NCBI GenBank assembly: GCA_029210565.1
Contig: JARGFQ010000016.1
Location: forward strand, 2,313 to 66,312
Length of the DNA: 64,000 bases
Reading direction: 5' to 3'
Origin: Bacteroidales bacterium
Lineage (GTDB): Bacteria > Bacteroidota > Bacteroidia > Bacteroidales > VadinHA17
Under the pieces are notes generated by a model. That model was not told the origin of the DNA. It did no database searches and saw only the letters and a list, made by a program, of their open reading frames with translations. The translations under genes and the position numbers were made by a program. Shown here piece by piece: positions 1 to 56,153 of the stretch (its first letter is position 1; every line of letters begins with the position of its first letter).

Positions 1-2533
1 CAAGCAGATTCACATCAACCGTGATGCTCTTTTTCTCGCCCGGCAGCAGAACAATATAATTGTCGTCGAAAAAGACAGGTGTCACCATCTTTCCGTCAAT
101 AGCCCTGATAACCTTCATCCTTACGAAGAAGGCTGCCACATCGCCGCTGTTTGCTATGTCAATGGTAAACTTACCCTGGTTACTCTTCATCATCTGACCT
201 ACAACCTTTGCCTTGCCAAGAGCCATCAGCTCCTTCTGGTCGCCTTCGCGGGGAAGCCAGTAGGTATTCTCATCTACGGTCAGGCCGGTGGAGACATAAG
301 TTATGCGGAGCCGCAGAAAATAAACCTTAGCCGGCTTGCCCCCGAGATCCACATCCCACACCTTTATGTGGCTGTTGGGAGGAAGAGTGGTTTCCTGAGA
401 TGCTTTCCATATTTCACGGCCGTTTTCATCAGTCAGCAGGGCATCAAGTCTCATGCCCTTGCGCTCCCTGGGCGTGGCATTGACGACATAGACGGCCGAG
501 TCTGCCGGATTGAACTGCAGATGTACCGGCGCTGCCCCGTGCCTGAAACCGTAGAAGCCTGCATTCTGATCAAGGTACCAGTCGTACATCTGCCCCTTGA
601 GTGCCGGCCAGGGATTCTGGCTCTTCCATAGCAGAAAGCCGGTGTACCAGTCCCACATGTGCGAGGTATATCCTTCAACCATCGAACGGTACTGTTCATA
701 GTTGACCAGCTGTGCCTTCTTCACGAAGTCCTTCAGGTCACTCACCTCCCCCATTCTATCAATCATGTCTCCATAGCCCATGTATTTATGATAGCGCCAT
801 ACCTCATTCACTTCCCTGCCTGAGGGCACAATCAGGTCGCTCTCATTCATCATCTTCTCCAGTGACTCCATATTTGGCAGACCTACTGAACCCATTTCAG
901 GATTGAACGGATGCCACTTTTCCGTGAAGAACCAGAGGGGCTCCCTGATATTGTAGGGGCCGTCACCAGTGCCTCCGATGGTGTTCCTGAGGATATCTGA
1001 AGAGGTTGACTCATCGAAGTAGAGCCTGGTGCCGTCAAGGGCGTCAAGTGTCTTTCTTATCCTGGCGTCCAGCTCCGGCGGCGGCGGGAACTCGTTGCCG
1101 CCGCAGTACATGTAGAGCGAAGGGTGATTACGAAGCATCTTCACCTGATCGGCCACCGAATTGATGAACAGAGAATGGTTGTCAGGATATTCACGGCGGC
1201 GTGCCTGTGTCTCGGCCTTTCTGAGGGTATCAGGCCACCTGCCGTTGCAGTCGCCGGTGATCCACAGATCCTGCCATACCAGTATGCCATACTTGTCGCA
1301 AGCCTCATAAAACTCCGGTCTCTCCATGATGGAGCCGCCCCACACCCTGATCATGTTCATGTTCATCTCGGCATGCATCTTCACCTCTGCATCGTATCTC
1401 GTACGGCTCAGACGCAGCATACCGTCGGAGACTATCCAGTTGGCCCCGCGGATAAATATCTTCTGACCGTTAATAGTAAAGACACGTGAGCCCGTCTTCT
1501 CATCGAACCAGCTGCCTGTCTCGCGGAAGCCGAACATCATATCCTCCCTGTCCAGCGTTGCCCCTTCCTTATCGTGAAATGTTATTACCGCCGGATAGAG
1601 TGACGGCTGACCCATTCCATTTGGCCACCAGATCCTGGGGTCAGTCTGTTTCATCTCCGAAAAGACAACTGTGGCCGTTGTCCCCGGCTCTATCTTTATC
1701 TTTTTCTTTTCAATGGAACCCATGTAGGCTAAGGCAGCCTCCCCCTCAACCAGCCTATCAGTGACGTTCTCAAACTCAGCAGAGAATGTAACGAAGGTCG
1801 GGTCCTGCAACTCGCCGGGAAGACGAGCGCCGGGCACACGTGTCCTGGCAAAACCGTTCCGTATATCCACATCACCGGTCACCTCAATGGAAACCTCATC
1901 CCAGATACCGGTGTTGCGGTCCCTGACAGGCTGTATCCAGTCCCACCCTGCTGTGAACTGCATGGTCACATCACGCCCTATCATACCGTCACCCCCCTGG
2001 CCGCCGTTGGGGTTGCCCGGATGGAGGGGCGGCTCCACCCTCACCGCAAGACGGTTGTAATCCTTCCTGTCGAGCAGTGAGGTGACATTATACTTCTGGC
2101 GCAGAAACATACCTTCGTGGGTGTCATCGCTTATCCGTTTCCCGTTGAAATAGATCTCCGCCCTGTAATTGATGCCCCTGAAGTTTATCCAGACCTGTTT
2201 CGTAGAATCGAGAGTCTCGGCTGAGAAACGTGTAAAGAACCAGTAAGTATAGTAATCACGTCCCTCGTTGTATACATCCGGTATCTCCTCGTTGTTTATG
2301 CCAAACCACGGCTCAGGCATGCGACCGTTGTTCACCAGGGTTGTCAGCACCGTCCCGGGAACGGTGGCGCTGATCCATCCGGATAGGTCAGGATCAGACT
2401 TTGTCAGATGGCATCCGTCAACATTTACTTCCGAGGCCTTCTTCGCCCTCCATCCTGCCGTGAGTGGCGTTACCTGGGCTGAAACAACCAGCGAGACAAT
2501 CAATAATAAGCTTGCAGTAAGTATCCGTTTCAT
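1..2533 (-). CDS. Glycoside hydrolase family 2 (beta-mannosidase / exo-beta-glucosaminidase-like), secreted; C-terminus lies outside the window
   Basis: Absent from the ORF track because it runs off the window edge. My reverse-strand translation from the ATG (rc of 2531-2533) gives MKRILTASLLLIVSLVVSAQVTPLTAGWR... and stays open to position 1. It contains the GH2-like motif NHPSLYMYCGGNEF (acid/base Glu region) and WQDLWITGDCNGRWPD. Confidence 0.75.
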   Translation of the reverse strand, partial: MKRILTASLLLIVSLVVSAQVTPLTAGWRAKKASEVNVDGCHLTKSDPDLSGWISATVPGTVLTTLVNNGRMPEPWFGINNEEIPDVYNEGRDYYTYWFFTRFSAETLDSTKQVWINFRGINYRAEIYFNGKRISDDTHEGMFLRQKYNVTSLLDRKDYNRLAVRVEPPLHPGNPNGGQGGDGMIGRDVTMQFTAGWDWIQPVRDRNTGIWDEVSIEVTGDVDIRNGFARTRVPGARLPGELQDPTFVTFSAEFENVTDRLVEGEAALAYMGSIEKKKIKIEPGTTATVVFSEMKQTDPRIWWPNGMGQPSLYPAVITFHDKEGATLDREDMMFGFRETGSWFDEKTGSRVFTINGQKIFIRGANWIVSDGMLRLSRTRYDAEVKMHAEMNMNMIRVWGGSIMERPEFYEACDKYGILVWQDLWITGDCNGRWPDTLRKAETQARRREYPDNHSLFINSVADQVKMLRNHPSLYMYCGGNEFPPPPELDARIRKTLDALDGTRLYFDESTSSDILRNTIGGTGDGPYNIREPLWFFTEKWHPFNPEMGSVGLPNMESLEKMMNESDLIVPSGREVNEVWRYHKYMGYGDMIDRMGEVSDLKDFVKKAQLVNYEQYRSMVEGYTSHMWDWYTGFLLWKSQNPWPALKGQMYDWYLDQNAGFYGFRHGAAPVHLQFNPADSAVYVVNATPRERKGMRLDALLTDENGREIWKASQETTLPPNSHIKVWDVDLGGKPAKVYFLRLRITYVSTGLTVDENTYWLPREGDQKELMALGKAKVVGQMMKSNQGKFTIDIANSGDVAAFFVRMKVIRAIDGKMVTPVFFDDNYIVLLPGEKKSITVDVNLL

Positions 2534-2625
2534 TCGATTATTTATTATTGTTTCATTGGTCGAATGGAACTTACATGTAGTACAATAACCATTTTCTCTT
2601 GCGGGTTACTGCTCATATAAGTTTC
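2531..2625 (-). repeat. Copy A of the ~95-nt structured leader element (hairpin + CCATTCGACCAAT + AT-rich spacer + CGAATG start)
   Basis: The reverse complement reads GAAACTTATATGAGCAG-N28-CTACATGTAAGTTCCATTCGACCAATGAAACAATAATAAATAATCGAATG. It ends on the GH2 start codon. Confidence 0.8.
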
Positions 2626-2869
2626 ATCCGTGTATAATTTGTTTTTAAAGGTAGGAGGGAACATCCATGAAATAATTATCTGCCTGTTTGTCAAACGGAA
2701 TTATCATTAATGTTTCATATGTGTCTCCTGTTGTAAACAAGAGTGGCAAGATATTAAAATTATCAGTACATGAGGGCCTACGCCCGATTGAAATGAATCA
2801 TGAACGTCCTCTGCCCGGGTGAAAAAAATTAACGGCAGACACTTTGATTTTAGCTGAAGAATTTAAACA

Positions 2870-31693: not shown

Positions 31694-32011
31694 ATGGCAG
31701 CTGTGATCTTAATATCGGTAGGAGTCCTCTTTAATCTCTTCGGGTGTCTGGGCCTCCTGAGGCTGCCGGACATGTACAACAGGTTGCAGGCAGCAACAAA
31801 GTGCGTGACGCTGGGATGCTGCAGCATCCTCCTGGGTGTCATGTTTCACTACGGTCTCGGCAGTGCCGGCTTCCGTGCCCTGGTGGCTATCCCGGTGCTC
31901 TTCTTTACAGCCACCGTGGCTGCACACGCCCTGGTCAGGGGCGCATACCATTTCGGAACGAAAATGGACAAAAGGAGTGTGAAAGATGATTATAGTGAGA
32001 TAGTAAAATGA
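31694..32011 (+). CDS. MnhG / MrpG / MbhC-like subunit
   Basis: 105 aa. LRLPDMYNRLQAATKCVTLG motif. Confidence 0.8.
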   Translation: MAAVILISVGVLFNLFGCLGLLRLPDMYNRLQAATKCVTLGCCSILLGVMFHYGLGSAGFRALVAIPVLFFTATVAAHALVRGAYHFGTKMDKRSVKDDYSEIVK

Positions 32012-32105
32012 AACTTGCATGAGCTAAAGCTTACAAAAGGATTTGATTACTAATTTTCATGCAAGTTCCATTCGACCAATACAATAAATTTTTCAGATAC
32101 GAATG
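32010..32105 (+). repeat. Copy B of the structured leader element, located inside the [NiFe] operon
   Basis: GAAACTTGCATGAGC-N33-TTCATGCAAGTTCCATTCGACCAATACAATAAATTTTTCAGATACGAATG. It begins at the mnhG-like stop and ends on the nuoI-like start codon. Confidence 0.8.
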
Positions 32106-32723
32106 AAGTACCCTAAACTTAGAGAGCTGAAAGAGGCAGTGACATCACTGGTAACACCTGCATATACCTCAAATTTTCCGGCCGGGGGCCATGTGCCCTT
32201 CAAGGATTTTAGGGGTAAGCCTGTTGTTGATGATGCCAACTGTGTGGGGTGTGAGACATGTGCCAATGTATGTCCCCCGCTGGCGATCACCTTCACTGAC
32301 GACAGGGAGAAGAAGATCCGTACCATCAGGCGGGATTACGGCAAGTGCATCTTCTGCGGCCAGTGCCAGGAGCATTGCATCACGGGCAAGGGAGTGAAAC
32401 TCTCCGACACCATCTTCGATATGGCTGCCTTCGACAGGTCAGCCGTCGTGGAGTACCAGGAAAAGGAGTTGCTGGTGTGCGAGAACTGTGGCGCCATAAT
32501 AACAACAGTCGAGCACCTCAGCTATATGCACCGCAAGCTCGGACCTAAAGCCTTTGCATCAATACTCAACCTCAACATCCTGAACCGTAAGCTGAAACTG
32601 GCTGAGGGACAGGATCTCTCGGCAGAGATAGACGAGACACTCCAGAGAAAGGATATGTTTAATGTCATCTGCCCTAACTGCCTGCGGCAGGTAACCGTCA
32701 AGTATCTTATCAGAGGTGCCTGA
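32103..32723 (+). CDS. NuoI / MbhN-like 2x[4Fe-4S] subunit with a C-terminal Cys4 extension
   Basis: 206 aa. CVGCETCANVCP and CIFCGQCQEHC motifs, plus extra CENC...CPNC pairs in the last ~85 aa. Confidence 0.8.
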   Translation: MKYPKLRELKEAVTSLVTPAYTSNFPAGGHVPFKDFRGKPVVDDANCVGCETCANVCPPLAITFTDDREKKIRTIRRDYGKCIFCGQCQEHCITGKGVKLSDTIFDMAAFDRSAVVEYQEKELLVCENCGAIITTVEHLSYMHRKLGPKAFASILNLNILNRKLKLAEGQDLSAEIDETLQRKDMFNVICPNCLRQVTVKYLIRGA

Positions 32724-33629: not shown

Positions 33630-33702
33630 CTTCGACGCAGGAGAAGACTCAATCCCGACCACGAAGTGCGTCGGAACGGCAGCCTGTAGGCCGCAGAACC
33701 TG

Positions 33703-33873
33703 TATTGTAGCATAGGCCGTAGCATTAAGGTATTGTAGCATAGGCCGTAGGCATTCAGGTCTTGTAGCATATGCCGTAGCATTAAGGTATTGTAGCATAG
33801 GCCGTAGGCATTCAGGTATTGTGCATATGCCGTAGGCATTCAGGTATTGTGGCATATGCCGTAGGCATTCAGG
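33703..33873. repeat. Tandem array of six 28/29-nt repeats with no spacers
   Basis: Units start at 33703, 33731, 33760, 33788, 33817 and 33845. The consensus is TATTGTAGCATAGGCCGTAGGCATTCAGG. Each unit holds a small ATGCC-GTA-GGCAT hairpin or a GCATATGC palindrome. Confidence 0.9.
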
Positions 33874-35669: not shown

Positions 35670-35732
35670 ATAACACACTACAGAATGAATCCCGCATCAA
35701 CCAGAGATCAAAAATGGATCTGATCATTGATT

Positions 35733-35772
35733 AAATGCAGGTGCCATTCGTCCAATAACCCTCTATCAAATG
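35733..35772 (+). repeat. Degenerate 3-prime remnant (copy C) of the leader element
   Basis: AATGCAGGTGCCATTCGTCCAATAACCCTCTATCAAATG compared with CATGTAAGTTCCATTCGACCAAT...ATG. Confidence 0.45.
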
Positions 35773-36897
35773 AAAAAAACACTCCTTCTGCTCTTCTCCG
35801 CCGTGATCGTAAGCGGATGTGCAGGTGACCGTGCAAAAGTCAAGATTGAAAATCCTCTCCCCTTTGACAGGAGTGCGGAGACCGTTGAGATACCCATTAC
35901 CTCAATAGCTGAGAAGCTGCCTGACTTCAACCCATCCGAACTACTGATTACTGACCGCAAGGGAAATGAGATCCCCTCACAACTCATCTATGCCGGAAAA
36001 GCCGAACCGCAGTCGCTGATCTTTCAGTCTGACATGAAGGCCGGCTCCTCCTCGGTATACTTCATCGAAAATGGGACGCCTTCAGATTATGAGGCCAAAG
36101 CCTTTGGGCGGTTTGTTCCCGAGCGAATGGACGACTACACCTGGGAAAATGACCGAATCGCCTTCCGCATATACGGCCCTGCTCTTATTGCCAAGGACGG
36201 TCCCAGCAACGGCCTCGACGTATGGGTCAAAAGGACTGACAGGATGGTTATAGACAGATGGTACTCCGATTATTTGGCAGGGAAGAACAGCTATCATGAT
36301 GATAACGGTGAGGGGTGCGACTCCTACAAGGTGGGACGCACGCTGGGAGCCGGGGCGATGGCCCCCTTCGTTGACGATTCCCTCTGGCTGGGAATCAACT
36401 TCGAAACATGGGAGACACTTGACAATGGCCCGCTTCGCACATCCTTCAGACTGACATATCCTCCGTTTGAGGTTCGCGGCGTGATGTTCACCGAGACCCG
36501 CACCTTCTCACTCGATGCCGGCAGCCAGATGAACCGGGTGACGGAAGAGTTTTCCGGGTTGGACAAGGTCTTTACCGTGGCCGCTGGCATAGTAAAGAGA
36601 GATGAAGGCTCAGCACTGCTCTTTCCCCCGGAAAAAAATGCCATTGCCTACCGCCTCGACGGAGGAGAGGGGGGTATAACATACGTAGGGACTGTCCTGA
36701 CCACCTCCGCCACGGCCGTTCAGGAGAACAGTGAACACCTGATGATCATCACCAGGTACATCCCGGGCACCCCGCTGGTATACTATACCGGTGCAGGCTG
36801 GAGCAAGTGGGGCTTTGAAACTGACGATGCCTGGAAAGATTATATTGACAAATTCTCTCAGAAACTGAGAACGCCTGTCAGGGTGTCATTGAAGTGA
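35770..36897 (+). CDS. DUF4861-family lipoprotein (common in pectin utilisation loci)
   Basis: 375 aa. Lipobox LFSAVIVSGCAG. The family assignment is from sequence recollection only. Confidence 0.6.
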   Translation: MKKTLLLLFSAVIVSGCAGDRAKVKIENPLPFDRSAETVEIPITSIAEKLPDFNPSELLITDRKGNEIPSQLIYAGKAEPQSLIFQSDMKAGSSSVYFIENGTPSDYEAKAFGRFVPERMDDYTWENDRIAFRIYGPALIAKDGPSNGLDVWVKRTDRMVIDRWYSDYLAGKNSYHDDNGEGCDSYKVGRTLGAGAMAPFVDDSLWLGINFETWETLDNGPLRTSFRLTYPPFEVRGVMFTETRTFSLDAGSQMNRVTEEFSGLDKVFTVAAGIVKRDEGSALLFPPEKNAIAYRLDGGEGGITYVGTVLTTSATAVQENSEHLMIITRYIPGTPLVYYTGAGWSKWGFETDDAWKDYIDKFSQKLRTPVRVSLK

Positions 36898-36933
36898 CCG
36901 TCGGCATAAACCATAGACATCGTTACACGTAAT

Positions 36934-37029
36934 GAAACCTACATGAGCAGCATCTTACAAATGAGATTGATTCCCTTATCTCATGTAAGTTCCATTCGAC
37001 CAATGAAATAACAATTACTTATTCGAATG
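36934..37029 (+). repeat. Copy D of the structured leader element
   Basis: GAAACCTACATGAGCAG-N29-CTCATGTAAGTTCCATTCGACCAATGAAATAACAATTACTTATTCGAATG. It ends on the GH105 start codon. Confidence 0.8.
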
Positions 37030-38250
37030 AAAACAAGAGTCATCACTCTCCTTGTCGCCGGCATCACGCTGGCATCACTACTCTCTTCATGCCTGAGCCG
37101 TAGCAATAACCGTGGCACCAGCGAGGCAGGACTTAAATCCCCCCTTTGGTCGGTACGCATGGCGGAATCGGAGATGGTTCGCAACCCTTCACTCTGGATG
37201 GTTGACTTCGTTAAGGTAAAGAAGTGGAACTACACTCACGGACTGATGGGCCTCGCTTTTCTGAGACTCCATGAGGCCACTGGCGACAGCAGGTATTTTG
37301 AATATGCAAAGGGTTATGCCGACTCACTCATCGACGAAAACGGAGTGATCTACAAATACAAAAAGGAAAACTACAACATTGACCATGTAAATCCCGGGAA
37401 AATGATGTTCCTGCTCCATGACCTGACGAAGAATCCGGCATACGAAAAGGTGATACACACTCTCAGGGAGCAGCTCGAATCACAGCCCAGGACTCCTGAG
37501 GGCGGTTTCTGGCATAAGAAGATCTACCCCGACCAGATGTGGCTCGACGGCCTTTACATGGGGGCTCCCTTTTATGCTGAATATGCACTCAGGTATGACC
37601 GGCCGGAGGATTTTCAGGATGTGATCAACCAGTTTCTTATCGCCACAGCGAACACTCATGATCCGGCAACAGGACTCTACAGGCACGCCTTCGATGCCTC
37701 GCGGAAGATGGCATGGGCTGACCCTGTGACCGGGCAGGCGCCTCATGCATGGGGACGGGCCATGGGGTGGCTCTCAATGGCTTTTGTTGATGTGCTGGAC
37801 TTCCTGCCGGAAGATCAGCCCGGCCGGGATGAACTGATTACCATACTACGAACAATGGTTGACAGGCTGGCGGAGATACAGGACCCGGAGACCGGAGGAT
37901 GGTACCAGGTGCTTGACCGGTCGGGTGATCCGGGCAATTACATCGAAACATCCTGCACCTCTATGTTTGCCTATTCCATCTTCAAAGGGGTAAGAAAAGG
38001 ATATCTCGACAGCGACCTCCTTGAAATAGCCATTGAAGCCTATGAAGGGCTCATTGAAAACTTCATTGAGATAGAGGAAAACGGGCTGGTGACATTGACA
38101 AACATTTGCGGTGTGGCGGGACTCGGGGGCGATCCTTACCGCGACGGCTCCTATGAGTATTATATCGGTGAGGTGATACGCGACAATGACCCCAAGGGAG
38201 CAGGACCATTTATCATGGCCAGCCTCGAATATGAAAGACTCTCAAAATAA
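37027..38250 (+). CDS. GH105 unsaturated rhamnogalacturonyl hydrolase (YteR/YesR family)
   Basis: 407 aa with a lipoprotein signal. GH88/105-type motifs WNYTHGLMG, MWLDGLYMG and WGRAMGW. Confidence 0.8.
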   Translation: MKTRVITLLVAGITLASLLSSCLSRSNNRGTSEAGLKSPLWSVRMAESEMVRNPSLWMVDFVKVKKWNYTHGLMGLAFLRLHEATGDSRYFEYAKGYADSLIDENGVIYKYKKENYNIDHVNPGKMMFLLHDLTKNPAYEKVIHTLREQLESQPRTPEGGFWHKKIYPDQMWLDGLYMGAPFYAEYALRYDRPEDFQDVINQFLIATANTHDPATGLYRHAFDASRKMAWADPVTGQAPHAWGRAMGWLSMAFVDVLDFLPEDQPGRDELITILRTMVDRLAEIQDPETGGWYQVLDRSGDPGNYIETSCTSMFAYSIFKGVRKGYLDSDLLEIAIEAYEGLIENFIEIEENGLVTLTNICGVAGLGGDPYRDGSYEYYIGEVIRDNDPKGAGPFIMASLEYERLSK

Positions 38251-40667: not shown

Positions 40668-40808
40668 TTGCATCTGGTATTCCATGGCACGGGAACAGTG
40701 AGGGCATGATATAACCTCAGAAGAAAAGGTGACAGCTGAATCAGATTCTCGCACCCAATCAAATAAACTGAATGTGTAGCGGCACATATAAGATATTGAA
40801 TACAAGGT

Positions 40809-40855
40809 CTCATGAGGGTTAGATCCGATCAATGAGGTAAATTTTTACGCGAATG
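40809..40855 (+). repeat. Diverged 3-prime half (copy F) of the leader element
   Basis: CTCATGAGGGTTAGATCCGATCAATGAGGTAAATTTTTACGCGAATG aligns with CTCATGTAAGTTCCATTCGACCAATGAAATAACAATTACTTATTCGAATG. Confidence 0.55.
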
Positions 40856-42259
40856 AAAGAATTTATCAATAAAGATTTTCTTCTGCAGAATGATGTGGCA
40901 AGGGCACTCTACCATGATCATTCTTCAGGTATGCCGATAATCGACTATCACTGCCATCTCAGCCCGGAAGCCATCGCAAACGACAGGCGGTTTGAAGATC
41001 TCGGACAGTTGTGGCTTGAGGGCGACCACTACAAGTGGAGGGCTATGAGGGCCAACGGCGTCGACGAAAAATTCATTACCGGTAAGGAGACCTCCTTCCG
41101 CCAGAAGTATGACCGCTGGGCAGAGACAGTACCATTCACCATGCGCAATCCGCTCTATGCCTGGACACACCTTGAGCTGAAACGGGTCTTCGGCGTGAGC
41201 CGTATCTTCAAGCCTGAAACTGCAGCTGAGATATGGGAAGAGTGTACTGAGCTCCTCCGCCAACCGGAATATTCGGCTCGCGGACTGATGAAGAAATTTA
41301 ACGTGGAGACAGTCTGCACAACAGATGACCCGGTCGACTCCCTCGAATATCATAAAGCCATCAGGGAGGGCGGTTTTGAAGTTAAAGTTCTGCCTGCCTG
41401 GCGGCCCGACAAAGCCATGGCGGTCGAAGACCCCGTGACATATAATGACTATATTTCAAGGCTCTCGGAGGTGTCAGACACTAACATCAAAAACTTCGCA
41501 ACCCTTCTTGAGACCCTGCGTAGGCGTCACGACTTCTTTGCCGGCGAAGGCTGCCGCCTGAGTGACCACGGCATTGAACAGTTCTATGCAGATGATTATA
41601 CTGACAGTGAGATAGACGCCATTCTCGGGAAAATCCTTTCTGGTAACCGCCTGAATCAGGCGGAGATTTCCAGGTTCAAATCTGCCATGCTCTATGAACT
41701 TGCCGTCATGGATGCGGAAAAGGGATGGACACAGCAGTTTCACTACGGTGCCATACGCAACAACAATAGCCGTATGTTTGCCAGGCTTGGCCCTGATACC
41801 GGCTATGACTCCATGGGCGACTTCACCGTGGCAAGAGATCTTGCCAGGCTGCTCGACCGGCTCGATGCCGGAGGCAATCTCACGAAGACTATTCTCTACA
41901 ATCTCAATCCCCGCGACAACGAACTGATTGCCTCCATGACCGGCAACTTCCAGGACGGTATTTTTCCCGGAAAGATCCAGTTCGGGGCCGGGTGGTGGTT
42001 CCTTGACCAGGAGACCGGCATGATCAACCAGCTCAATGCCCTCTCGCTGATGGGACTGCTCAGCAGGTTCGTCGGCATGCTCACCGACTCGCGCAGCTTT
42101 ATCTCCTATCCGCGTCATGAGTACTTCCGCAGGATACTCTGCAACATGCTCGGGGAAGATGTCATCAAAGGCAAACTGCCCGAGTCAGAGCTTGATACAA
42201 TAGGGAAAATGGTTGAAAACATCTCATACTACAATGCAAGAGATTTTTTCGGATTCTGA
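40853..42259 (+). CDS. uxaC: Glucuronate isomerase
   Basis: 468 aa. FLLQNDVARALYHDH..PIIDYHCHL N-terminus is typical of UxaC. Confidence 0.92.
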   Translation: MKEFINKDFLLQNDVARALYHDHSSGMPIIDYHCHLSPEAIANDRRFEDLGQLWLEGDHYKWRAMRANGVDEKFITGKETSFRQKYDRWAETVPFTMRNPLYAWTHLELKRVFGVSRIFKPETAAEIWEECTELLRQPEYSARGLMKKFNVETVCTTDDPVDSLEYHKAIREGGFEVKVLPAWRPDKAMAVEDPVTYNDYISRLSEVSDTNIKNFATLLETLRRRHDFFAGEGCRLSDHGIEQFYADDYTDSEIDAILGKILSGNRLNQAEISRFKSAMLYELAVMDAEKGWTQQFHYGAIRNNNSRMFARLGPDTGYDSMGDFTVARDLARLLDRLDAGGNLTKTILYNLNPRDNELIASMTGNFQDGIFPGKIQFGAGWWFLDQETGMINQLNALSLMGLLSRFVGMLTDSRSFISYPRHEYFRRILCNMLGEDVIKGKLPESELDTIGKMVENISYYNARDFFGF

Positions 42260-53901: not shown

Positions 53902-54044
53902 TTTATATCCCGCTTTTTTGTTCCCGGTCCGTGGGCCTGAATTTTGTTCGCCGGTGAAAAATCAGCTGTTTTTATGTATGTTTGCGTGATTAATAACCGG
54001 CAGATATGCAGCATACCCGCTCTCTGCACACAAGAATGAATACT

Positions 54045-54144
54045 GAAACTTACATGAGCAGAAACTCACAGAAGGACATGATTTGTTTATTTCATGTAAG
54101 TTCCATTCGACCAATGCAATAATAATTATTTATTTACCCGAATG
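54045..54144 (+). repeat. Copy E of the structured leader element
   Basis: GAAACTTACATGAGCAG-N30-TTCATGTAAGTTCCATTCGACCAATGCAATAATAATTATTTATTTACCCGAATG. The terminal ATG opens a 3-codon uORF whose TGA overlaps the FKBP start. Confidence 0.8.
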
Positions 54145-54149
54145 AAACG

Positions 54150-54842
54150 ATGAAAAATGTCAAAATCTTAACCGTCATTGTTCTTTGTGCCGTGACAACA
54201 TTCACCGCCGCGGCGCAGAAATCAAAATTCTCCACCTCCGAAGACTCACTATCCTATGCTCTCGGCGTGGCAAATTATAAATACTATGTGGCCGACAGTA
54301 TTGATATCAGCACAAAACTGTTCTATAAAGGGATGAAGGATGCCGAAAAGGAGAAGCCCGTCATGAACGATACAACTGCCAGTGCTTTCATAGTAAGCTA
54401 TATGCAGAGGCGTGAGAAAGCACGACTGACTGCCGAGTACAGCACTCAGATCCAGGAGGCAGAAGCGTTTTTCGACGAGAACGGCAAAAAAGAGGGTGTC
54501 GTCGTACTTCCAAGCGGACTTCAGTATAAAGTTCTGAACCGGGGTACAGGCGCAACTCCAGGTCCTGATGATGTTGTCAGGGTACATTATACCGGCACCA
54601 CTGTCAACGGAACAAAGTTCGACTCCTCGTATGACCGTGGCGAGCCTGCACAGTTCAGGGTCAGCAACGTCATAAAAGGATGGATTGAAGGACTACAACT
54701 GATGCAGGAGGGCTCAAAAATGATGCTTTATATTCCCTATGACCTTGCCTACGGGGAGAGAGGAGCAGGCAGTATCATCAAACCGTTTGAGACACTGATC
54801 TTCGAAGTTGAGCTTTTAGAGGTGATAAAAGAAGATGAGTAG
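54150..54842 (+). CDS. FKBP-type peptidyl-prolyl isomerase (FkpA/Mip-like), secreted
   Basis: 230 aa with a signal peptide. [27 protein letters not shown], and LIFEVELL. Confidence 0.9.
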   Translation: MKNVKILTVIVLCAVTTFTAAAQKSKFSTSEDSLSYALGVANYKYYVADSIDISTKLFYKGMKDAEKEKPVMNDTTASAFIVSYMQRREKARLTAEYSTQIQEAEAFFDENGKKEGVVVLPSGLQYKVLNRGTGATPGPDDVVRVHYTGTTVNGTKFDSSYDRGEPAQFRVSNVIKGWIEGLQLMQEGSKMMLYIPYDLAYGERGAGSIIKPFETLIFEVELLEVIKEDE

Positions 54843-56073: not shown

Positions 56074-56153
56074 CCTTACCGCGTAGCGGTTACAGTGTTG
56101 TAGGTCATGCACCAGAATTAGATCCTTATCGCGTAGCGGTTATAGTATTGTAG
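56074..56153. repeat. Two 30-nt copies (50-nt period) of a hairpin(GTA loop)...TTGTAG repeat related to the 33.7-kb array
   Basis: CCTTACCGCGTAGCGGTTACAGTGTTGTAG (56074-56103) and CCTTATCGCGTAGCGGTTATAGTATTGTAG (56124-56153). Confidence 0.8.

Follow-up and report, generated by a model that had tools for sequence, protein, structure and literature searches.

A short repeat, here called copy B, separates two genes of an Mrp/Mbh-type hydrogenase operon in a 64,000-nucleotide stretch of DNA (the window) from a Bacteroidales bacterium. The window (GenBank assembly GCA_029210565.1, contig JARGFQ010000016.1) is contig 7 of the source genome, G000, a 3.48-Mb draft that is 97.7% complete. Upstream of copy B lies an mnhG-like gene, whose product matches the Pfam family PhaG_MnhG_YufB, and downstream a nuoI-like gene encoding a 2x[4Fe-4S] protein. 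The 91 nt between these genes form the sole gap of more than 50 nt late in the operon, the remaining late junctions being overlapping or shorter than 50 nt, as had been claimed in an original prediction made from the letters of the window. That prediction also identified the TGA of the 5' boundary as the mnhG-like stop and the ATG of the 3' boundary as the nuoI-like start. Both assignments are confirmed: the TGA (32009-32011) lies within ATGAAAC (32008-32014), and the start codon is the ATG of CGAATGAAG (32100-32108).

Copy B is very probably the insertion of a protein-free element of about 95 nt, which enters in one orientation only and integrates at ATGA, usually ATGAA(A). The insert runs from AAC.. 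to ..CGAATGA and is equally writable as 32012-32106 or as 32008-32102. A covariance-model match covers 32008-32107 with a score of 105 bits.

The evidence for insertion comes from the orthologous operon, which was taken from 14 related genomes via the NuoI-like protein. In 11 of them, one belonging to another family, the site is empty and the genes overlap (..GTGAAATGA(A/G)GTACCC..), the junction reading ..GTGAAATGAAGTACCC... This is the ATGA stop/start overlap that was predicted to reappear once the element is removed together with one repeat. The site is filled in G000, in its close relative G017, and in G012 and G018. The filled site of G018 reads ATGAAAC...CGAATGAGATACCC, with ATGAGATACCC on its right side, and the empty site of a sister genome reads ATGAGGTACCC. 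ATGA alone is therefore present twice, and the strictly duplicated part appears to be ATGA, with the trailing AAC being the element's own. GAAAC, the first arm of a covarying hairpin, is likewise assigned to the element. The direct repeat noticed earlier is thus real, with its strictly shared part shortened from ATGAA(AC) to ATGA, usually followed by A. The proposed target-site duplication fares similarly: ATGA does stand at both ends, but this equally fits an element whose own last four bases match the target beside it.

Public sequencing runs were covered as assembled contigs of relatives. One contig from a landfill metagenome skips exactly 95 nt (32006->32102), with six ambiguous bases. Assemblies from a hydrocarbon metagenome break at the element, where the summed word depth rises about 18-fold. 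On a tree built from 2.7 kb of operon sequence flanking the site, the filled genomes do not form one clade, and forcing them together costs 622 log-likelihood units (approximately unbiased, AU, p = 2e-7). The mnhG-like/nuoI-like site itself has undergone at least 2-3 gains or losses. The copies of the three filled lineages are at most 82% alike, versus 84-86% to copies at other loci. Since same-site copies are no more alike than copies from other loci, repeated insertion is mildly favoured over a single gain followed by several precise losses.

Similar polymorphism was found elsewhere on mapping to G000 the flanking sequences of 132 copies taken from relatives. Sites occupied in both genomes are numerous, and no fewer than 12 additional loci are occupied in one genome and vacant in another. 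A dozen of the mapped sites lack a copy in G000 and have just one ATGAA where the gene begins, and several hold a single copy in one genome and a tandem in the other. A junction on contig 41, where a 208-aa gene is followed by a 328-aa gene (sigma/anti-sigma-like), is empty, with the overlap intact, in 25 congeners and filled in only G000 and G017. At an operon junction on contig 2, ten genomes are empty and eight filled, several of the copies being badly decayed. Polymorphic insertions, which the original prediction had proposed to look for, are therefore present at the contig 41 site, at the 12 or more other loci and in the landfill contig. These empty sites, together with copy numbers among 61 congeners that range from 0 (18 genomes) to at least 65, the scoring being capped at about that number, bear out the idea of a small non-autonomous mobile element. 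At two positions of G000 (contig 41:278995 and contig 6:48700), the empty allele reads ATGCA instead of ATGAA, and both sites are filled in the close relative UBA4772; such alleles could be variants that avoid insertion because the target is destroyed, or they could be due to chance.

Features of the copy B locus and the other copies of the repeat in the window
Feature	Position	Strand	Remarks
MnhG-like gene	31694..32011	+	upstream of the insertion
Left ATGA	32008..32011	+	target-derived copy; its TGA is the MnhG-like stop and its ATG opens the mini-ORF; a single ATGA in the 11 empty-site genomes
Mini-ORF ATG AAA CTT GCA TGA	32008..32022	+	4 codons; supported by nucleotide conservation alone
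Inserted 95 nt (copy B)	32012..32106	+	filled versus empty comparison; contig skip of 95 nt with 6 ambiguous bases; covariance-model match
Hairpin 1	32012..32067	+	arms 32012-32021 / 32058-32067; loop of ~36 nt with conserved bases
Hairpin 2	32069..32105	+	CATTCG (32069-32074) pairs with CGAATG (32100-32105); A/T-rich loop
NuoI-like 2x[4Fe-4S] gene	32103..32723	+	start codon rebuilt by the insertion
Copy A	2529..2627	-	its end is the start codon for an exported protein of 869 aa; site filled in 4 relatives
Copy C, decayed	~35685..35774	+	ends on the start codon of a lipoprotein gene
Copy D	36932..37031	+	its end is the start codon for an exported protein of 407 aa
Sixth copy, strongly decayed	40769..40857	+	CGAATG ends on the start of a 468-aa ORF (40853-42259); profile E = 0.13
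Copy E	54043..54146	+	terminal ATG opens a 3-codon ORF; real start codon 7 nt downstream

The window contains four intact copies (A, B, D and E) and two decayed ones. The latter, copy C and a sixth copy, add to the four cited in the original prediction, and both end on start codons. The 18-mer AAGTTCCATTCGACCAAT occurs four times exactly, against 0.06 occurrences expected. All copies end at, or 7 nt ahead of, the start codon of a long open reading frame (ORF) on the same strand. All four intact copies had been said to carry the same ATGAA on both sides. This is so for copies A and D, with ATGAAAC on the 5' side and CGAATGAA on the 3' side, but copy E begins with CTGAAAC, its ATGAA lying 5 nt further upstream. 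At the other end of copy E (54134-54160), the 3-codon ORF ATGAAACGATGA ends in a TGA that overlaps the ATG of the real gene for an exported protein, and a new ATGA coupling junction has thereby formed downstream of the element.

A genome-wide count with a catalogue of flanks had been suggested as a check. With a profile built from the four intact window copies (E < 1e-3), about 83 copies were found in G000. Across genomes, 93 of 123 distinct copies start with ATGAAAC, and nearly all end in CGAATGAA or CTAATGAA, the next base being A in 90%. Outside the genus, diverged relatives with the same ends and architecture are present in eight of 150 Bacteroidales genomes of other families. Public records with the repeat are all metagenome-assembled genomes labelled Bacteroidales or Bacteroidales families, plus one labelled only Bacteroidetes. 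Viral contigs were scanned as well, and the element was not found in them.

The copies stack head to tail. Ten tandem dimers occur in G000, with one ATGAA common to both members at the junction, and in nine of the ten the better-preserved member is the gene-proximal copy. Amplification comes in lineage-specific bursts. In G036, which belongs to another family of the order, the units of a burst are 94-100% identical, and these elements are a currently or recently active population. The relatives found at the G036 loci L248-L260 are often tandem and lie a few hundred bases from contig ends, and some of the units have a GC-rich insertion of ~35 nt in the loop of hairpin 1. A nested insertion is also found in G000, on contig 11 (28574-28756), where one copy contains a different small repeat of ~80 nt with two GC-rich hairpins. 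It sits in the A/T-rich 3' part of the copy, and three relatives have the copy uninterrupted.

The position of the copies relative to genes is nearly uniform. With the upstream members of tandems excluded, 65 of about 72 copies in G000 end at the ATG of a co-oriented ORF of at least 50 codons, and in eight copies the TGA of the upstream gene lies within the left ATGA, as in copy B. By comparison, about 2,136 unoccupied ATGAA sites lie outside gene interiors in G000, and 46% of them open an ORF of at least 50 codons. The fraction is about 90% for the element, an odds ratio near 10. The suggestion that the element homes to start codons thus receives statistical support. The excess is consistent with a broader target (ATGAAA, A-rich context), with selection against other sites, or with a combination of the two. 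Of the ATGAA-start ORFs of at least 200 codons in G000, about 9% are occupied. Beyond ATGAA starts, no bias towards a class of target genes and no sign of a regulon were seen in G000: signal-peptide-like products make up 47% of the targets versus 43% (p = 0.5), and many exported proteins are found among them because of their Met-Lys (ATGAA) starts. One diverged copy, on a small contig, lies antisense in the space between genes, which leaves the start-codon rule strong without being absolute.

The element lacks terminal inverted repeats in any rotation permitted by the ATGA repeat. Folding with RNAalifold and of single sequences, with RNA or DNA parameters, gives two hairpins. Hairpin 1 begins directly after the left ATGA and holds several near-invariant bases in its loop; hairpin 2 includes the rebuilt nuoI-like start codon. 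In an alignment of 57 copies from many genomes, 95.7% of the cells are paired, and eight of the 16 pairs change on both sides (65 cells), including six of the ten pairs of hairpin 1. This alignment was fitted to the model and leans to the structure, while an independent MAFFT alignment already had both covarying positions. The covariation measures were reached by none of 500 shuffles, and sliding the partner by one column lowers the pairing to 25-28%. The two variable pairs of hairpin 2 occur in eight compensated versions: CAUUCG/CGAAUG, CAUUAG/CUAAUG, CAUCUG/CAGAUG, CAUCAG/CUGAUG, CAUGUG/CACAUG, CAUACG/CGUAUG, CAUCCG/CGGAUG and CAUCAU/AUGAUG. This hairpin is weak, with 6 bp closing a loop of ~25 nt.

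According to the folding, the CAUU box of hairpin 2 can alternatively pair with AAUG of the left junction, which lengthens hairpin 1. One internal segment is therefore complementary to both junctions. The original prediction had named, as an argument against itself, that the flank might be part of a conserved structure. The 3' ATG does pair with the internal CAU box; this is, however, no argument against mobility. The mini-ORF, which starts at the left ATG and has four codons, is present in most copies since its sequence is conserved, and it ends in the first arm of hairpin 1. No Rfam family reached its gathering score in the window, and a search with E up to 10 gave chance hairpin matches only.

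ATGA(A) is the commonest gene beginning in this genome (Met-Lys), and stop and start codons classically overlap in the same letters. Since the element finishes in ..CGA and ATGA comes next, insertion keeps the upstream stop codon and rebuilds the downstream start codon, placing it behind an A/T-rich, unstructured stretch. Such a stretch before the start suits translation initiation in Bacteroidota. An insertion would be tolerated even in an essential-looking operon because the stop is kept, the start is rebuilt and the leader is A/T-rich. The hairpins might serve as the recognition structure of a trans-acting enzyme that works on single-strand DNA (or RNA). By pairing with AAUG at either junction, the internal (C)CAUU box could allow junctions and target to be recognised by base pairing, as in the "peel and paste" transposition of the IS200/IS605 type. 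Taken together, the scarless insertion at a fixed tetranucleotide, the right end in the same tetranucleotide, the single orientation, the stacking, the lack of inverted termini, a length that would not allow a double-stranded circle and the covarying hairpins with an internal sequence complementary to the junctions point by analogy to structure-guided integration of a single strand. This type of integration is established for IS200/IS605 elements and REPs (repetitive extragenic palindromes) (PMC6006769, PMC7290912).

The consequences for the host would be as follows. The upstream stop and downstream start would be kept and an A/U-rich leader supplied, and with no T-run after the hairpins the element should not terminate transcription. 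At copy B, the ATGA coupling junction would be replaced by an overlap of stop and mini-ORF and, 91 nt further on, by a start that stands alone. Initiation could be dampened by hairpin 2, though this hairpin is weak. Old copies have decayed (two in the window and several at the contig 2 junction) and no bias in target class is seen, which argue that most copies are tolerated passengers.

It is possible, and is put forward tentatively, that this is a new class of start-codon-homing element, in which a CAU guide pairs with ATG(A), the mover is not a Y1 enzyme, and the element doubles as a translation-initiation leader. The mover might be a host function or an undescribed strand transferase, or the spread might proceed via RNA. 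In such a class, the ready-made leader would be the reason why ~9% of the ATGAA-start genes, operon junctions included, could be colonised without killing those genes.

Several observations weigh against the account of copy B as one insertion of a mobile start-codon element. The copies in G000 are not very young, with a mean pairwise identity of 68% and a maximum of 96%; a younger CATTAG sub-family reaches a mean of 84%, with the same maximum of 96%. The preference for start codons may be exaggerated by selection. G-U mismatches are as frequent as A-C ones (19 versus 16), pointing to neither strand and not to RNA over DNA. In 43% of copies the element's top strand is the locally G-rich one, as against 57% for genes, and no lagging-strand-template bias was seen, GC skew in a draft genome being a rough proxy. 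Further points concern the mobilising enzyme. Neither Y1_Tnp/RAYT (Pfam PF01797) nor TnpB and IS110 genes were found in G000, at its 97.7% completeness. A self-BLAST of all its ORFs revealed no family with at least three near-identical (>=70%) copies, and therefore no multi-copy transposase ORF. Y1 genes are absent from seven of nine high-copy congeners (G000 and six others) and common in zero-copy ones, and 76% of the sampled Bacteroidales genomes have them, whether or not the element is present.

The details of integration would also be explained by a derivative like PATEs (transposable elements associated with palindromes) or REPs, moved by a Y1 HUH transposase (IS200/IS605 TnpA or RAYT) through a circular single-stranded intermediate. 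Insertion 3' of a fixed tetranucleotide, an end in the same tetranucleotide, the absence of inverted repeats at the termini, the strict polarity, the stacking of copies head to tail and the covariation of the hairpins all agree with it, and such tetranucleotide, polarity and hairpin features are hallmarks of this family (PMC6006769, PMC7290912). G036, with its recent burst, has three Y1 genes, and in G117, a genome of five contigs, two of about ten copies of one sub-family lie at most 400 nt from Y1 genes, which is a weak hint. The reading is nevertheless doubtful, since the Y1 gene is missing from G000 and the six other high-copy genomes. That seven of eight element-positive genomes outside the genus have Y1 is no signal against the base rate of 76%. 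None of 20 Y1 loci shared the ends of the element in covariance-model and BLAST scans; at one of them an element copy simply occupies the start codon of the Y1 gene. REPs of the GTAG type, a different repeat, flank the Y1 loci that were read in G117. The absent strand bias speaks against it too, as does the geometry, with loops of ~30 nt and the guide-like box 3' of hairpin 1. Less probable again is that the element is mobile and at the same time a portable translational leader co-opted by the host, in which hairpin 2 would mask the start codon while the mini-ORF and hairpin 1 would compete for the CAU box. The pairing of start codon and CAU is kept through the eight compensated variants, the CAUU box can pair with the 5' AAUG instead, the 4-codon ORF is found in most copies, and the copies are sense-oriented in transcribed leaders. 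This proposal is unlikely because the target genes show no functional bias, presence at orthologous genes is patchy, old copies decay freely and hairpin 2 is weak; a structure serving transposition alone would, moreover, give the same covariation.

Spread through RNA, in which a reverse transcriptase would write the transcribed element into DNA again at start codons, seems improbable. It would account for the sense orientation within transcribed regions, at mRNA start sites, and for the lack of replication-strand bias, and reverse-transcriptase genes do exist in G000, where a search with Pfam RVT_1 only gave matches on contig 5 (1-935 and 41688-42311) and contig 38. Two of these three matches are at contig ends, a placement suggestive of a repeat, for instance a group II intron; a multi-copy intron of this kind, at which the assembly breaks, is probably their source. 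The element itself has no intron- or retron-like features and no Rfam match, its ends are precise, with no poly-A and no variable 5' truncation typical of retro-copies, and the one antisense intergenic copy does not fit. A classical MITE (a miniature transposable element with inverted repeats), that is, a deletion derivative of an insertion sequence with a DDE transposase and a target-site duplication of 4-5 bp, is very improbable. The same ATGA(A) on both sides, the small size and the many copies would be expected of it, but the lack of terminal inverted repeats in any rotation brings it close to refuted, and it is further contradicted by the single orientation relative to a non-palindromic target and by the lack of multi-copy transposase ORFs in G000. 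No longer parent element was seen in G117, where every 5' end pairs with a 3' part ~47 nt away, nor in G036, where 13 burst copies have nothing in common beyond ~110-120 nt. Hardly any credence is left for an immobile, vertically inherited cis-regulatory RNA, a riboswitch-like leader of which the ATGAA flanks would be part. The covarying structure and the location in 5' leaders are what it predicts, yet the exact ATGA junctions at empty orthologous sites, seen in dozens of genomes, already refute it; the range from 0 to at least 65 copies among congeners, the tandem stacking, the unrelated target genes and the absence of an Rfam family agree with this.

Two Y1 loci of G117 were read for their surroundings. 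L181 (1390-1947, on contig 4 of that genome) is a Y1 HUH gene with an element copy exactly on its start codon, ATGAAAC, and its motifs ..SHVH.., WQ and YIQNQEQHH resemble subclass 1.2, a poorly understood group of Bacteroidetes and Cyanobacteria (PMC6006769). At the second Y1 gene, L175, an element copy is found 190 nt downstream. The window, too, contains arrays of short GC-rich palindromes with a GTAG-type tag (33702-33872 and 56074-56153), with units such as CCGCGTAGCGGTTA.AGT.TTGTAG. Near-identical GTAG units flank the RAYT-like Y1 genes L181 and L175 in another Bacteroidales family. As G000 is without a detectable Y1 gene, the arrays of the window look like orphan REP sequences.

A repeat that targets start codons was not found described in the searched literature or in Rfam. 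Within that literature and database, a start codon that is both chosen as the target and rebuilt is outside described bacterial mobile DNA. If confirmed, it shows a selfish element living inside tightly packed operons. The ATGA coupling junctions replaced by the leader of the element would then be a natural experiment on initiation without Shine-Dalgarno sequences. The mobilising enzyme and the guide-like junction pairing could point to a new sequence-programmable strand-transfer system, of interest to specialists in mobile DNA and in Bacteroidota translation. In practice, the insertion polymorphisms are usable for strain typing in an abundant uncultured Bacteroidales genus of hydrocarbon, landfill and sediment metagenomes, and annotators are warned that some 80 "leaders" per genome are not regulatory RNAs.

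Among known systems, IS200/IS605 elements have small subterminal hairpins at both ends, and a guide tetranucleotide just 5' of the foot pairs with the cleavage sites (PMC6006769). Compared with that geometry, the CAUU box of the element is complementary to both junctions but lies 3' of hairpin 1, and hairpin 2 contains the right junction. The element resembles PATEs and IS200/IS605 in having no inverted termini, in its scarless insertion in one orientation by a fixed target of 4-5 nt, in a right end that is a fixed tetranucleotide, in its conserved hairpins and internal sequence complementary to the junctions, in head-to-tail stacking and in its very small size. It differs from them in that no cognate Y1 gene was found in most high-copy genomes, its ends are unlike those of any examined Y1-bearing element, no lagging-strand-template bias is seen, its loops are of ~30 nt instead of short, its guide-like box is 3' and not 5' of the hairpin, and its target ATGA coincides with start codons.

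With REPs and REPINs mobilised by RAYTs, the element has in common that it is short, structured, non-autonomous, persistent in lineages and mobilised in trans. However, REPs are marked by a GTAG/CGTC tag and mostly follow genes, whereas the element has neither such a tag nor the paired, inverted layout of REPINs, is found on start codons and shows no co-occurrence with Y1; the GTAG-type REPs of this genome are a separate family. The mycobacterial interspersed repetitive units (MIRUs) are closest in position. They occupy intergenic operon junctions in the direction of translation, overlap the stop and start codons of the flanking genes and can stack in tandem, just as the element is found at operon junctions, with its left ATG overlapping an upstream stop in eight copies. 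An ORF through the whole MIRU unit keeps translational coupling, while the mini-ORF of the element stops after four codons inside hairpin 1, and MIRUs have neither the two-hairpin architecture nor a fixed ATGA target. The Correia repeats and NEMIS (Neisseria miniature insertion sequences) of Neisseria and the enterobacterial repetitive intergenic consensus (ERIC) sequences are likewise small repeats in leaders and operons, which are co-transcribed and can reshape the expression of neighbours. They have terminal inverted repeats, a TA duplication (Correia) and both orientations, and do not sit on start codons. Without the defining features of either, the element works most like a PATE or a REP and sits like a MIRU.

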